NCBI GenBank assembly: GCA_964016885.1
Contig: OZ024755.1
Location: forward strand, 20,026,001 to 20,090,000
Origin: Eledone cirrhosa
Lineage: Eukaryota
Direction: 5' to 3'
Length of the DNA: 64,000 bases
This document shows, piece by piece, positions 2,693 to 64,000 of this stretch. Every line of letters starts with the position of its first letter. The stretch's first letter is position 1. The translations under genes and the position numbers were made by a program. The notes beneath the pieces are model-generated. The model was given only the letters and a program-made list of their open reading frames with translations, was not told where the DNA came from and did not search any database.

Positions 2693-2694
<2 letters not shown>

Positions 2695-3128
2695 ACATAC
2701 GTTAACCTTGGTCTTCCTCTTCTAGTGTGTCCATGTAGGGGTTCCCACAGGAGCACTGAGTGCAATTTCAACTCTGGATATCGGTGAGCATGTCCAGCTA
2801 ACCTCAGTCTCCCCTGTGCTACATTCGAGCTGACTTTTGGGAGGCTCCCATAGAGCTCTGAGTTTTTCATCCTCAGTGTATACTGATTAATGTTCAGAAC
2901 CATCCTCAGCATTCTCGTGTAGCCCCCATCCACCATTTGAGTGAGTTTGTTGGTCAGTGTCCAAGTCTCATACCCATACAGCAGCACAGACTCCACTACA
3001 GCAATGAAGAGGCGGATTTTCAGGTCTTTACACTGGTCTGTTGGAGACGCAGGACATGGCAGCGATAATGAGATACAGAGACCGCTGGAGAGAACTCGTC
3101 CATGGATATCGGAAATTTTACCCGCCTT

Positions 3129-3130
<2 letters not shown>
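2693..3130. mobile_element. RTE LINE fragment with 5' inversion, inserted in (TA)n
   Basis: 2693-3029 (-) encodes KIRLFIAVVESVLLYGYETWTL...RLRLAGHAHR...GRPRLTYVD. 3030-3130 (+) carries the rest to the TAG, colinear with the 5913-6251 copy. Confidence 0.9.
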
Positions 3131-3773: not shown

Positions 3774-3814
<41 letters not shown>

Positions 3815-3816
<2 letters not shown>

Positions 3817-4025
3817 CGAAGGAAATGTGGTAAGGAACCAGATGGACCATAACGCACCAAAGTACTCAATACTTAGGGTAGTAGAGTGGGTAATAGGAAC
3901 GAGTAGGACCCTGACGGCTGAGCTCAAGCCGTTTCGACGGCTAATTCTGGACTAAAATGTGGACTTTTTAGTCCAGAATTAGCTGTCGAATCGGCTTGAG
4001 CTCAGCCGTCGGGGTCCTACTCGTT

Positions 4026-4030
<5 letters not shown>
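3815..4030. mobile_element. Foldback insertion, family A (probable Penelope-like pLTR pair)
   Basis: 65-bp inverted arms 3893-3957 / 3966-4030 plus a 78-bp unpaired tail; flanked by (TA)n. Same family at 17762, 27532, 54865 and 63945. Confidence 0.75.
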
Positions 4031-4076
<46 letters not shown>

Positions 4077-5857: not shown

Positions 5858-5912
<55 letters not shown>

Positions 5913-5916
<4 letters not shown>

Positions 5917-6249
5917 TGCTGAGGATGGCTCTGAACATTAATCAGTATACACTGAGGATGAAAAACTCAGAGCTGTATGGGAGCATCCCAAAAGTCAGCT
6001 CAAAAGTGACACAGAGGAGACTGAGGTTGGCTGGACATGCTCACCGACATCCAGAGTTGACATTGCACTCAGTGCTCCTTTGGGAGCCCCTACATGGACA
6101 CACTAGAAGAGGAAGACCAAGGTTAACATATGTTGATGCCCTAAGGACAGACACTGGTCTGTTGGAGATGCAGGATATGGCAGCGATAATGAGGGACAGA
6201 GACCGCTGGAGAGAACTCGTCCATGGATCTCGGGAATTTTACCCGCCTT

Positions 6250-6251
<2 letters not shown>
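5913..6251 (+). mobile_element. 5'-truncated RTE LINE in (TA)n
   Basis: Open frame RMLRMALNI...RRLRLAGHAHR...GRPRLTYVD...DRDRWRELV...*. The stop is followed directly by (TA)n, and (TA)n also lies upstream. Confidence 0.9.
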
Positions 6252-6283: not shown

Positions 6284-6537
6284 CGTTTCTGAATTTGTTT
6301 AGCAAGATTCTTTATCTGAAATCGTGTGTTGAAACCGATATTGTTATATTTTGGGAGGGTCATGTTGCCAATAAGAAACACACGCACCAGTTGCTTTCAC
6401 TTCAATTTATTATTATAATAAATTTATAATAAATTTATAAATTTATCATAAATTTATTATAATAATAAATTGAAGTGAAAGCAACTGGTGCGTGTGTTTC
6501 TTATTGGCAACATGACCCTCCCAAAGTATAACAATAT
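6281..6537. mobile_element. Foldback insertion, family B
   Basis: About 95-bp inverted arms between 6338 and 6537 plus a ~57-bp tail; near-identical element at 63565-63788; TA flanks. Confidence 0.75.
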
Positions 6538-6551
6538 ATATATATATATAC

Positions 6552-6690
6552 ATTTATTAAAATAACAGATTAAAGTTTAAGCAAAGAATCGCTGCTTTCA
6601 CCCTTAAGATCCCATTAAGGGTGAAAGCAGCGATTCTTTGCTTAAACTTTAATCTGTTATTTTAATAAATCTTTGCTCTACGGTTCTTAT
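6552..6690. mobile_element. Foldback insertion, family C
   Basis: Perfect ~55-bp inverted arms around gatccca, short tail, TA flanks. The centre reads ...aagatcccattaagggtGAAA, resembling hammerhead stem II. Confidence 0.65.
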
Positions 6691-14878: not shown

Positions 14879-15870
14879 AACTTATCGATATTAATACAAA
14901 TGGCACTTAATGATTTTATTGAAATGCGGTATGCTATATTTTGGCAAAGATTTCAATTTTCACTGGCCAAGAAAACTGTAAGCATTTGGATATATGTCAA
15001 AAGGTAATATTTCCATGGCATCGTATCATAGAAAATGCCGTGATTTTATGCTGAATGTACATATATATATTCGGCTTTAATTGACGGGTAGTAATATATA
15101 TTAATTACTTTAATTTTCTTCTGCCTCTCTCAATTAAATTCATTGGAAATTGTTTGAATATCATTATATAATGCACCATTCGGGAGTGGGAGACGAAAAT
15201 ACATCGATTGAATGTATTATTTTGTTTTCTCGACCAGAGTTGGGATCTCAAATCTTGACAAGTTCGATACTCGTTAAGTCAGTTTTGTGTTAAATTAATG
15301 CCCCTAAAGTAAGTCTAATCAAATTCACGTCTGTCTCCTCCCCGCGAAAAAATTGCAAGCTGAGGTAACGTAATGAATTTAGTAATTTGTACCACATTAT
15401 TATATGGTTTCAATTTAGAGCTGGAGCAATTTAGCTTCATATATATATATATATATATATATGAAAAAATGAGGAGAAGAATACTGCTGGTTGCACATGG
15501 ATAACATGTAATAAAATAAGTCCCTCATCAGTGATTTGCCGACGATCATAGATATTTCATTGCATTAAAAATCATATACCTCACGTCGGTGCAATAATAA
15601 CTAAATTAAGTTATTGGGACAATTAAAACGCGTAAAGCGAGTGAAACAAGATAACAACAAAGAGGATAGCTAACCGTAGAAGGAAGGGAACAAGCTTCAT
15701 AGTTATTCTGTTAGCATAAGCTAGGTGAATATATGAGCGCTTAGAAAAAAGACCTTTCAGGAGCGAATTCAAATGTGAGAAAGAGAGAAAATGATTTCGT
15801 CGCGAACGGGGTGAAGTGAGAAGAGGAGAAACAGTGAGTGAGTGAGTGGAAGTGCGAGGAAGAGATAGAT

Positions 15871-16074
15871 GTAGTAACACAACAGTTAGTTCACCATACC
15901 GAGAACAATTGTTTCACCTCGGACTGGCAATGGTTCCGTATAACCATTACCAGCCCGAACTGAAGATCTGCATAAGGTGAAACAATTGGTCTCAGTATGG
16001 TGAACTAACTGTTGTGTTACTACTTCTACCAAACTCATCCCCATGGACTGAGTGCTCTACTAGTGTTCTACCTT
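15871..16074. mobile_element. Foldback insertion, family D, with decayed hammerhead
   Basis: Arms 15871-15919 / 15975-16023 with an inner hairpin; CTGAAGA (15960-15966)...GAAACAATTG; homologous to 63858-63930. Confidence 0.75.
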
Positions 16075-16425
16075 TATATATATATATATATATATATATA
16101 ACCAAGTTTGTTTTGAAACAACGAGCGAGTTTGAAAGTATAAATAAAAGCTTTCGACGTATTTTTTTTTTTTTTTAACTAAAGGCATTTTAGCCTTATAG
16201 TGGGGTTTAGAATCCTCGAAGAAATGGAAAAGCGGAGTATTGATGTAGTCAAAAGTACGACAAAAGCTTATATATATATATATGGAATTTGCTGTCAAAC
16301 GGTAAAAGCTCAGCCGTCGGGCCTCGACTCTGAATAATTTCTTACTAGTTTAAAACTGGTATAATCCTGATATCTCTCTCCCCCTCTCTCTACACACACA
16401 CATTATTCATTATTATTGTTATTAT

Positions 16426-17423: not shown

Positions 17424-17645
17424 GTGGAGGCGCGTGGCTGAGTGGTTAGAGAATTGGATTCACAATCGTGAGGTCGTGAGTTCGATTCCCGAACTGGGCG
17501 ATGCGTTATGTCCTTGAGCAAGACACTTTATTTCACGTTGCTCCTTCTACCTGGAGTTGCGACCGATAGATAGTATTAGCAGTTGGAAAGACCAATGGAG
17601 ACATTGTTTCCTCGGTCCGATTTGACGAAAGTCGATCGACTGTCG
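17424..17645 (+). mobile_element. SINE family 2
   Basis: tRNA-like head ggaggcgcgtggctgagtggttaga...gagttcgattccc, followed by the conserved core. Confidence 0.85.
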
Positions 17646-17761: not shown

Positions 17762-17766
<5 letters not shown>

Positions 17767-17880
17767 GGAAGTGTAGTAAGGAGCCGGGGGGACCATAACG
17801 CACCAGTGTATTCAATACTTAGTTCGAATCTAGCAGTCGAAACGGCCGGAGCTCAGCCGTCGGGGTCCTGACTCTTTTCA
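17762..17880. mobile_element. Family A relative: two oppositely oriented pieces in (TA)n
   Basis: The left piece matches the tail of 3815; the right piece matches the opposite arm (gtcgaaacggccggagctcagccgtcggggtcc). Confidence 0.7.
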
Positions 17881-27531: not shown

Positions 27532-27637
27532 TGACGAAGGAAATGTGGTAAGGAACCAGATGGACGATAACGCACCAAAGTACTCAATACTTAGGGTAGT
27601 AGAGTGGGTAATAGGAATAAGTATGACCCCGACGGCA
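27532..27637. mobile_element. Family A single arm in (TA)n
   Basis: Near-identical to 3815-3917. Confidence 0.8.
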
Positions 27638-33789: not shown

Positions 33790-34270
33790 AAATGTTTCTA
33801 CTTTTGACACGAGGCCGGCAATTACACTAGTACATTATTGGCAGTATCGGTAGAGGGTCGGACGCCATGCTTTGACGTATAGAGTTACGGCCCCTGCCAT
33901 TCTGAGTTCAAATCCCGCCGAGGTTAACTTTGCCTTTCATCCTTACGGGGGGTTCGATAAAATAAAGTACCAGTAATGCACTGGGTAATTGCTGGCCTTG
34001 TGCCAAAAGTAGAAACAATTATTTCTGGCTACTGTAAGGGCGTGGATTGGCAGTATCGGTAGAGTGTCAGACACCATGCTTTGTAATAAATAATTGTTTC
34101 TATTTTAGGCACAAGGCCAGCAATTACCCAGTGCATTACTGGTACTTTATTTTATCGACCCCGTAAGGATGAAAGGCAAAGTCAACCTCGGCGGGATTTG
34201 AACTCAGATCGTAGAGGGACGTAACTATGCTGGAAAGCCTGGCGTCCGACCCTCTACCGATACTGCCAAT
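33790..34270. mobile_element. Cluster of family-1 SINE pieces in both orientations
   Basis: Inverted 3' stub, a + copy, a 5' stub, then a - copy. Confidence 0.85.
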
Positions 34271-34660
34271 AAATAATATTTTCCAAATTGTATTGCCGTA
34301 GTTTGGGACATACCATTCTTTTACTGTAGCTGTTTGGAGAATGAACTGTCCTATAAATATGGCGTGATATCTACTCCTTGACACTCTTTATCACTTCCTT
34401 ATACCATATATAAGGCTTTCTATTGTGTGAATTACGTAATATTCTCTCGACACATAATGCCTTGTGCAAGATGTACACCGTTAATACAAACATTTTACAC
34501 GGATTTTGAAAGAAAGAAAAAAATGAATTTGCGCTACATATTTTCCGTTATAATTTAGAAACGAATGACTCGTAAAAGTTCCAAGTATTTAAATATATAA
34601 TTCATAAACAAAACAACAACAATAAAACTATAAATATTTTACTATTTTAATAACTATATA

Positions 34661-40406: not shown

Positions 40407-40749
40407 GAGCAAAGATCCTTTCACAAGATGAAAGTAAATGAAATGCTTTTAACCACACAGAATGATTTCAAATTGAAGCATGGATTGATCGTATCGATCG
40501 ACATGATCCCAGACTTCATTCGCTTACCGAGTTGAGTGGAACTCGTCAAATTGGACCAAGGAAACACTGTTTCCATTGGTATTTCCGTTGCTGATAATAT
40601 CTGCCAGTCACATATTTTAATGTTTTAGTCGCTCCTATATTCAAGTGGAACGTAGTTAAACTTCCTAAAGGATTTCCCACTCAGAAGTATTATCGAGAAA
40701 TATAGAACTTATAAATACATAAATACAAATATAAGATGTATGTATGCCC

Positions 40750-42772: not shown

Positions 42773-43600
42773 TTTTGTTGAAAATAATTGTTTCTACTTT
42801 TGGCACAAGTCCAGCAATTATCCCAGTGTATTACTGGTACTTTATTTTATCGACTCCCGTAGGGATGAAAGGCAAAGTTAACCTCGGCGGGAGTTGAACT
42901 CAGATCATAAAGGGACGTAACTCTTTGCTGCAAAGCATGTCGTCTGACCCTCTACCGATACTGCCAATCCACCGCGGCTTTTGTTGAAAATAATTGTTTC
43001 TACTTTAGACACAAAGCCAGCAATTACCCAGTGCATTACTGGTACTTTATTTTATCGACCCCGTAAGGATGAAAGGCAAAGTTAACCTCGGCGGGATTTG
43101 AACTCAGATCATAAAGGGACGTAACTCTTTGCTGCAAAGCATGTCGTCTGACCCTCAACCGATACTGCCAATCCACCGCGGCTTTTGTTGAAAATAATTG
43201 TTTCTACTTTAGACACAAAGCCAGCAATTACCCAGTGCATTACTGGTACTTTATTTTATCGACCCCGTAAGGATGAAAGGCAAAGTTAACCTCGGCGGGA
43301 TTTGAACTCAGATCATAAAGGGACGTAACTCTTTGCTGCAAAGCATGTCGTCTGACCCTCTACCGATACTGCCAATCCACCGCGGCTTTTGTTGAAAATA
43401 ATTGTTTCTACTTTAGACACAAAGCCAGCAATTACCCAGTGCATTACTGGTACTTTATTTTATCGACCCCGTAAGGATGAAAGGCAAAGTCAACCTCGGC
43501 GGGATTTGAACTCAGATCGTAAAGGGACGTAACTATGCTGGAAAGCATGGCGTCTGACCCTCTACCGATACTGCCAATCCACCGCCGCTTTTGTTGACAA
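42773..43600 (-). repeat. Four head-to-tail family-1 SINEs (~204-bp period)
   Basis: Linker ttttgttga occurs at 42773, 42979, 43183, 43387 and 43589. Confidence 0.95.
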
Positions 43601-43970
43601 TGTCTTTAGAATATGTCATGAAAGTAGATTATTACCGGATTTCAATTATTACATTTTCCTACAATTCAATATGATAATTAATATATCAATTTTATACTTT
43701 TCTGAATTCATAGATTAACTATAAAGCATAGATTTCTCCATTCATTTAACTCAATGCATTCAATGGAGTAAAATCTTTAAAGATATTTTAATTTTCAAAG
43801 CATGTTAGTTAAACAAACATCAAACAGGAGAAGAAAGGAAGGAGAAGGGATTAAGTATATTACTATGTGTTAAACTAATATCAGATTTGATAGATTTAAA
43901 AGCGTTGTGCAATTATAAGACAGATGAAGAAGAGAGTTTATCACAGAAGTTTCAGCCCGTTTCTCCTTGC

Positions 43971-54826: not shown

Positions 54827-54864
<38 letters not shown>

Positions 54865-54869
<5 letters not shown>

Positions 54870-55065
54870 AACCAGTAAGACCCCGACAGCTGAGCTCAAG
54901 CCGTTTCGACGGCTAATTCTGGACTTAGTCCAGAATTAGCCGTCGAAACGGCTTGAGCTCAGCTGTCGGGGTCTTACTGGTTCCTATTACCCACTCTACT
55001 ACCTCAAGTATTGAGTACTTTGGTGCGTTATGGTCCACCTGGTTCCTTACCACATTTCCTTCGTT
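54865..55065. mobile_element. Foldback insertion, family A
   Basis: Perfect 61-bp arms 54865-54925 / 54927-54987 with a 1-nt loop and a 78-bp tail; TA flanks. Confidence 0.8.
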
Positions 55066-55087
55066 ATATATATATATATATATATAT

Positions 55088-55422
55088 ATTTCTTCTAGTT
55101 TATTTTACACCTAATTCTGTTTAGTTGACTGTATATCTGGTCGATTTATACATAGTCGAAATGTTCGATAAATACTCCGTCGTAACCGCCGCGAAGGCGC
55201 TGCTTTCGGTTATTTGTCGGAGATTTCTTCATAGGAGCCTTTATTCTTATAGCTTGGTCTAATTAATTTTTTATATGGTTAATTATGCTAATTGGGAGAG
55301 GAAACGGTATATGTTTTATCTAGTGATTCTATAGACATGTTTTATGATATATAGCTCTGATTATTTAATTTATTAATTTTTCATTGAGCCACAACGTGAC
55401 CCGTTGCAAAACACATATATGA

Positions 55423-63564: not shown

Positions 63565-63786
63565 TTTCGTTTCTGAATTTGTTTAGCAAGATTCTTTATC
63601 TGAAATCGTGTGTTGAAACCGATATTGTTACACTTTGGGAGGGTCATGCTGCCAATAAGAAACACACGCACCAGAAATTTATAAATATTTAATAAATTTA
63701 ATAAATATTTAATAAATTAAATTGAAGTGAAAGCAACTGGTGCGTGTGTTTCTTATTGGCAGCATGACCCTCCCAAAGTGTAACAA

Positions 63787-63788
<2 letters not shown>
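63565..63788. mobile_element. Foldback insertion, family B
   Basis: Near-identical to 6281-6537, with a different central junction. Confidence 0.8.
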
Positions 63789-63860
<72 letters not shown>

Positions 63861-63889
63861 TGGTTACACAATAGTTAGTACACCATACC

Positions 63890-63925
63890 GAGAACAATTG
63901 TTTCACCTTAGCGGATCCTCAGCTC
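63890..63925 (-). ncRNA. 36-nt minimal hammerhead ribozyme (family D)
   Basis: gag-CUGAGGA-uccgcuaaggu-GAA-ACAAUUGU-U-cuc: helix I gag/cuc, short stem II, palindromic helix III. Confidence 0.72.
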
Positions 63926-63944
63926 CGAAGATATATATATATAT

Positions 63945-64000
63945 AGGGAAAGAGTCAGGACCTCGATGGCTGAGCTCCAGCTGTCTCGACAGCTGCATTC
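63945..64000. mobile_element. Family A relative, cut by the window edge
   Basis: Reverse complement resembles 17826-17880; follows a TA run. Confidence 0.65.

Follow-up and report, generated by a model that had tools for sequence, protein, structure and literature searches.

The stretch of DNA analysed here, called the window below, comprises 64,000 nucleotides of the Eledone cirrhosa genome (contig OZ024755.1, positions 20,026,001 to 20,090,000). It contains two short insertions in which a repeat lies head to head with a truncated copy of itself, between runs of (TA)n, and the question is how such a unit was made. The formation of inverted repeats by Penelope-like elements (PLEs) is named as an open question in the text consulted of PMC8557442. 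In the sequence-only reading, the insertions were regarded not as MITEs but as two cDNAs, primed from opposite target strands and joined head to head.

Anatomy of family A in the window

The repeat, family A, is a high-copy sequence of ~140 bases. Its inner end is fixed, and on the outer side it stops at either of two fixed ends, both at (TA)n. The shared inner end is designated S, the end of the short arm E1, and the end of the long arm E2. In each of the foldbacks A1 (3816-4027) and A2 (54868-55064), a long arm of 138 nt and a short arm of 58 nt lie head to head, and both foldbacks are flanked on the two sides by (TA)n runs. As listed in Table 1, a 58-bp palindrome is accompanied in each of them by a one-sided extension of 78-80 nt; the E1-E2 distance is 78 nt, or 80 nt when ambiguous T/A bases are counted as repeat. 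The 78-nt extension agrees with the earlier count. The two arms of one insertion differ at 3/58 positions in A1 and at 0/58 in A2, and 4-5/58 differences were found between the insertions. The diagnostic bases are common within an insertion and different between A1 and A2, as had been stated. The central junction had also been said to differ. It does so in sequence (16 nt in A1, 1 nt at 54926 in A2) but not in place: the arms of A1 and A2 and the short arm at 17821 all start at S, a third fixed point that had been overlooked. In the A1 long arm, the family sequence continues to about 3956. The word TTCCT precedes both outer ends on the sense strand (3816-3830 and 4015-4027) and is a possible synthesis-start signal.

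Table 1. Positions of family A arms, their (TA)n targets and a ribozyme-like motif in the window.
Feature	Position	Strand	Remark
(TA)n target left of A1	3780..3815	.	sequence
A1 long arm	3816..3953	-	S at 3953, E1-equivalent 3893-3896, E2 at 3816
Hammerhead-like 3' half motif	3913..3935	-	GAAA, 6-bp stem with palindromic loop, UC
A1 centre, 16 nt	3954..3969	.	A-run, repeat of the arm's last bases, T-run
A1 short arm, S to E1	3970..4027	+	3/58 differences vs long arm
(TA)n target right of A1	4028..4073	.	sequence
Decayed solo short-arm piece (sixth)	16284..16332	+	(TA)n on inner side; right end approximate
Distal 59 nt of long arm, older subfamily	17762..17820	-	begins at E2 beside (TA)n
Whole short arm, older subfamily, S to E1	17821..17879	+	head to head with the 17762 piece
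Solo long arm from E2	27533..27636	-	inner side cut short; then (TA)n and SINE piece
(TA)n target left of A2	54829..54867	.	sequence
A2 short arm, E1 to S	54868..54925	-	58/58 identical to long arm
A2 long arm, S to E2	54927..55064	+	after 1-nt centre
(TA)n target right of A2	55065..55089	.	sequence
Short arm, older subfamily, from E1	63946..64000	-	ends at window edge

A BLAST search of the 64-kb window with A1 and A2 recovered four more pieces, which makes six in all. Those at 17762 and 27533 begin at E2, and those at 17879 and 63946 at E1, each within ~1 nt; the related pieces previously placed at 17762, 27532 and 63945 do, with this tolerance, end at equivalent sites. All six pieces touch (TA)n, and three of the six contain an inverted truncated copy joined head to head. 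The (TA)n on both sides would mask any target-site duplication. S was used in 3/3 window junctions (A1, A2 and the 17821 short arm). The piece at 17762-17879 is a head-to-head pair without a palindrome, the two parts of which are joined via 4 shared bases (17819-17822). In the window and the reads together, family A takes the form of a foldback, a non-overlapping pair or a solo arm. No tandem of family A was found within the window, and none of the six pieces is a partial tandem giving direct pLTRs.

This diversity of forms bears on whether the insertions could be a MITE or a foldback DNA transposon inserting at TA. They are short, palindromic, present in high copy and located in a TA context, all of which a MITE would share. 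However, their termini are alike at only 5/30 positions, and on one side the inverted repeat does not reach the terminus. Moreover, the solo arms and the non-palindromic head-to-head copies leave no constant structure. The MITE reading is therefore largely refuted and we regard it as very improbable; on this point the sequence-only reading held.

Fixed ends and head-to-head joints in sequencing reads

Four of 23 listed runs were aligned on 3806-3969 at 85% likeness. X1 consists of contigs, possibly from the source sample, X4 of contigs from the same study as X1, and X21 and X22 of raw RAD reads from two other samples. Among 12.5 million and 12.8 million raw reads, 22,654 and 23,296, respectively, matched the stretch (~0.18%). 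If a genome of 1.5-4 Gb is assumed, this corresponds to ~12,000-32,000 copies of family A, a rough figure given the biased sampling by RAD. At E1, 3424/22,654 and 2945/23,296 raw reads start at 3893 with (TA)n before it, and the same end with the preceding (TA)n is present in 76 X1 contigs. At E2, about nine tenths of the coverage just inside the arm continues into the adjoining TA. These data uphold the claim that the two outer ends are fixed genome-wide. The two other TAT sites in the arm (3871 and 3851) do not occur among the loose ends listed. A variant long end at 3826 was also observed (1008 and 1198 reads); it is of similar length and is preceded by mixed AT-rich sequence.

The inner end is less sharply defined. 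Beyond S, no clear common sequence was found in the loose ends listed (agreement 0.40-0.61, AT-rich). The older subfamily, which diverges at 3899, gave a readable consensus in the four runs, with an agreement of 0.55-0.65. The first ~12 letters beyond S, which are AT-rich, are alike across all four runs, so S may reach ~12 nt further; its position is fixed only to within ~15 nt. An AT-rich upstream parent may lie beyond S. Read ends pile up inside the arm at 3943-3946, and the pile at 3946 was rejected as a biological signal because AATT at 3943-3946 is a restriction site. The pile at 3956 is perhaps restriction-derived too and was excluded from the evidence for S.

The joints between arms were then considered. 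Of 21 joints, 15 were listed, 12 of them opposite-strand, and each probably represents one or few loci; their direction was read from the from/to columns of the alignment output. In 10 of the 12 listed opposite-strand joints, one side lies at 3947-3956 and the other at 3855-3916 (3855, 3857, 3871, 3882, 3884, 3887, 3916 and, in three joints, 3899), and the two sides share 0-4 bases. Nine of the ten are present in both raw-read runs and three also in X1. The shorter side of two joints, 55 and 61 letters long, is a whole short arm. Six of the ten break at 3882-3899, around E1 (binomial 0.003-0.008 by the range assumed, the interval having been chosen afterwards). Of the other opposite-strand joints, that from 3806 to 3893 probably connects neighbours on one TA run, and the one from 3840 to 3891 appears to link two arms that both have the long end. 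The arms are non-overlapping, with at most few shared bases, in the 17762 piece and in nine of the ten listed joints, so simple self-copying of one arm cannot be their source.

The joints also speak to the possibility that the hairpins arose as artefacts of assembly or library preparation. In favour of this, the 15/21 joints listed include no full 58-bp hairpin joint, and no listed read piece spans 3806-3969; A1 and A2 as loci are known from the assembly. We infer that hairpin joints are missing through AATT cutting in the arm, poor amplification of hairpins and contig collapse. An artefact would, however, hardly give the A1 arms three private differences, at one of which ~98% of reads have the other base, or give A1 and A2 different centres. 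Three identical head-to-head joints were moreover found in contigs of one study and raw reads of another. We consider an artefact extremely improbable. The expectation that independent reads would contain the hairpins is borne out for head-to-head joints, which occur in two samples, but not for the full 58-bp hairpin among the listed joints.

A serious rival is a snap-back, in which one cDNA folds back at S and becomes its own template, or a foldback copy that was itself transcribed and moved, either being followed, once inserted, by asymmetric central deletion of one arm. Self-priming was proposed for palindromic PLE junctions in the part used of PMC3846280, and the arms of A2 are identical, as a snap-back would make them. 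The A1 centre, with its complementary A and T runs and short duplication, also looks as if it came from a fold-back primer. Asymmetric central deletions are known in palindromes, according to the section consulted of PMC8701086, and trimming of this kind would spare one arm to the centre. Snap-back with later central deletion accounts for the identical arms and the one-sided loss, but not for the fixed E1: under a snap-back, nothing would halt the copy at E1, where thousands of reads pass into (TA)n, nor would breaks be expected to gather there. Inheritance of a foldback alone would not keep both arms matched across three subfamilies. The alleles at 3901 stand at 40/43/17% in the reads, and despite this the arms of A1, A2 and the 17762 piece are subfamily-matched, which indicates that the mirror arm was rebuilt and not only inherited. 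On this evidence, the rival is unlikely, though it keeps an appreciable share of our confidence.

Ribozyme motif, coding capacity and neighbouring elements

The arm carries a motif resembling the 3' half of a type I hammerhead, a pattern chosen after it had been seen and present in 0.14% of 20,000 resampled sequences. The CUGANGA hammerhead core is absent from the family A arm on the motif strand. The GAAA of the motif sits 18-21 nt downstream of S, and S may lie approximately where the upstream edge of a hammerhead would fall. S does not suit the role of hammerhead cut site: cleavage by the half motif would fall 44 nt downstream of it. Readings as a type II or type III hammerhead were rejected because the core is missing. 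An Rfam search at E up to 1 returned 86 matches, none of them above the gathering score, with no hammerhead and no tRNA among them; one was a weak miRNA-hairpin match over A2. A single arm folds no better than its shuffles (z 0.10 and -0.15).

No Pfam match to RT or GIY-YIG was found among the 76 ORFs of the window. The single open sense frame of family A has no protein match and no sign of coding constraint (14/34 synonymous vs 13.0 expected); the 46-codon frame was accordingly dropped as the start of a PLE protein. Exact-pattern scans for a parent gave 0 loci in metagenome contigs, viral contigs and prokaryote genomes. The full-length parent that the sequence-only reading had asked for was thus found neither in the window ORFs nor in the protein, metagenome, viral and prokaryote searches. 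The PLE-type origin suggested by the same reading agrees with the layout of an inverted copy plus tail, but it lacks a parent or ORF and the hammerhead core.

Family A could instead be a SINE-like RNA moved by a (TA)n-targeting LINE with L1-type twin priming, in which the second primer would anneal to the 3 bases UAU at E1. The inversion with 0-4 shared joint bases matches L1 twin priming as described in the portion consulted of PMC2837659, TAT directly follows E1, and LINE-like 3' ends lie in (TA)n in the window. Against this, E1 is one fixed site despite two other TAT sites in the arm, and family A has no similarity to the LINE or SINE pieces of the window. Convincing RNA polymerase III boxes were not seen either, a weak test: the best sense matches to the A and B boxes have 2 mismatches each and those of a control SINE 2 and 1, so the separation is poor. 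The half-hammerhead motif suggests that family A descends from a PLE or a retrozyme. We judge the LINE explanation quite improbable.

A second family in the window has the full minimal hammerhead core in a Hydra-clade layout. It was missed by a strict hammerhead descriptor and found by a relaxed one among 3 matches. At 15866-16074 two copies are inverted relative to each other, and a tail of 46 nt runs out into (TA)n. The copy at 63859-63930 is solo; it starts ~3 nt before stem I and stops at the short site, and one TA run serves both it and the family A piece at 63946. The presence of a hammerhead core, an inverted arm and a tail in this family indicates that PLE-type units occur in this genome.

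Several other repeats were observed in the window. Near-perfect palindromes at 6342-6533 and 63622-63789 have equal ends and AT-rich variable centres and are MITE-like; a further palindrome lies at 6552-6670. A tRNA-type SINE is abundant (33835-34272, 42773-43601 and many other places); one pair of copies lies tail to tail, and about 4 copies make up a tandem array of 204 bp. The 3' end of a second SINE-like family (106-182, 17480-17645, 40543-40602) abuts (TA)n and has a palindromic word. Two LINE-like 3' fragments, at 2693-3130 and 5912-6251, have the same end, lie each between (TA)n and gave no Pfam match; we take them to be of RTE type. A 51-bp tandem array at 1404-2068 contains 13 copies with 99% match and is open in three frames.

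Proposed origin and comparison with known systems

We propose that family A was probably written by a Penelope-like RT/endonuclease that would cut both strands of a TA repeat and make one cDNA per strand. The template RNA would read from S through E1 to E2. After both strands are cut, one cDNA would be primed at E2 and the other at E1. The E1-primed cDNA would run to S, and the E2-primed cDNA would stop anywhere, often where the E1 primer sits. If the E2 cDNA displaced the E1 primer and reached S, a 58-bp foldback would result. The two cDNA ends would be joined via 0-4 shared bases or a few added ones, and single priming would give the solo arms. The end of synthesis at S could be the 5' end of the RNA or a block in a longer RNA. 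The breaks near E1 favour one RNA bearing both primers, as in L1 twin priming. Full foldbacks would need displacement, a second RNA or a snap-back. The earlier idea of two cDNAs joined head to head is in this respect supported by the non-overlapping arms and the PLE-like layout, but for the full foldbacks snap-back is a serious alternative.

The insertion units of endonuclease-bearing (EN+) PLEs consist of an inverted 5'-truncated copy and a one-sided tail (PMC3846280; PMC8557442). EN+ PLE units resemble family A in their head-to-head arms, one of which is longer by a defined tail, in the AT-rich or microsatellite target, and in short overlaps or palindromes at the junction. Family A differs in its tail of 78-80 nt compared with the 30-40 nt described for PLEs, and in its fixed inner end, whereas PLE units are randomly truncated. 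In contrast to EN+ PLEs as described there, no ORF was seen in the element and no direct pLTR tandem among its six window pieces, and an intact hammerhead is absent. The inverted-plus-tail unit and the (TA)n bias are known; family A stands apart by its long tail, by an inner end that is fixed and by the lack of the core. By this analogy, family A would probably work as a PLE unit does.

In the consulted text of PMC8557442, a type I hammerhead in the pLTR is reported for Penelope/Poseidon, Neptune and Hydra and is absent in Naiad, and the inverted copy, the tail and the (TA)n bias are reported for Naiad and Hydra PLEs. Close opposite-strand hammerhead pairs have already been published for PLEs, as far as the sources used describe them. 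Naiad and Hydra PLEs, including Octopus families, share with family A the (TA)n target and the abundant short 3' ends (PMC8557442). Naiads are, like family A, without a canonical hammerhead (PMC8557442). The last 110 nt of Naiad_Obim and Naiad_Ovul resemble family A in an 8-base motif, a palindromic hexamer, a CCGT/GGGG word, a similar terminal word and similar spacing, a likeness found by eye and unscored. Eight family A words of 10-13 bases had 0 exact matches in the part of the PMC8557442 supplement that was searched. The cephalopod Naiads are called long inactive in the portion used of that paper (PMC8557442), whereas A2 has identical arms.

The PLE protein PAc (Poseidon, green anole) was reported to cut and extend both target strands in vitro (PMC11167929, in the sections consulted). 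It prefers AT-rich DNA, two internal RNA start sites define the tail, and insertion proceeds without the need for a ribozyme (PMC11167929). Family A would agree with it in having two start sites that delimit the tail, both strands usable, an AT-rich target and a dispensable ribozyme. The sections of the PAc study at hand do not derive the inverted unit from two-strand priming; for family A, we infer it from the joints.

L1 twin priming, as presented in the part used of PMC2837659, is similar to family A in its opposite-strand cDNAs, the inverted segment, the 0-4 shared bases and a first cDNA that ends near the second primer. Family A differs from L1 in that the second start is fixed, there is no poly(A) (the ends abut (TA)n), and full overlap, that is the foldback, occurs. 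Animal non-LTR retrozymes are likewise short, non-coding and proposed PLE derivatives (10.64898/2026.07.22.740005). They are tandem units with complete type I hammerheads, whereas family A is dispersed, inverted and without the core (10.64898/2026.07.22.740005). A description of family A was not found in the literature searched, most subscription papers lying outside it, and among the papers that join 'Penelope' and 'twin priming', judged by title and start of abstract, none concerns PLE inversions.

It is also conceivable, though we hold it only as a tentative and rather doubtful extension, that family A is complete in itself and travels, in the manner of a SINE, as a passenger of a Penelope-like enzyme. 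It would be a 140-nt RNA with a hard boundary at S that is twin-primed on a single molecule at two fixed sites.

The interest of the structure as such is lowered because the inverted-plus-tail unit has already been published. Family A is nevertheless a small, abundant family with three fixed points, for which two-strand priming and snap-back give different, countable predictions, and both long reads and the available in vitro assay could serve to count them. The family indicates that retroposition can also give rise to hairpins that look like MITEs in TA-rich genomes, and it offers a useful natural record of the way in which PLE inversions arise. If the passenger reading is true, tens of thousands of joints would directly record PLE inversions made by two-strand priming in which synthesis stalls at the second primer, and the inverted repeats of PLEs would not come from self-priming.
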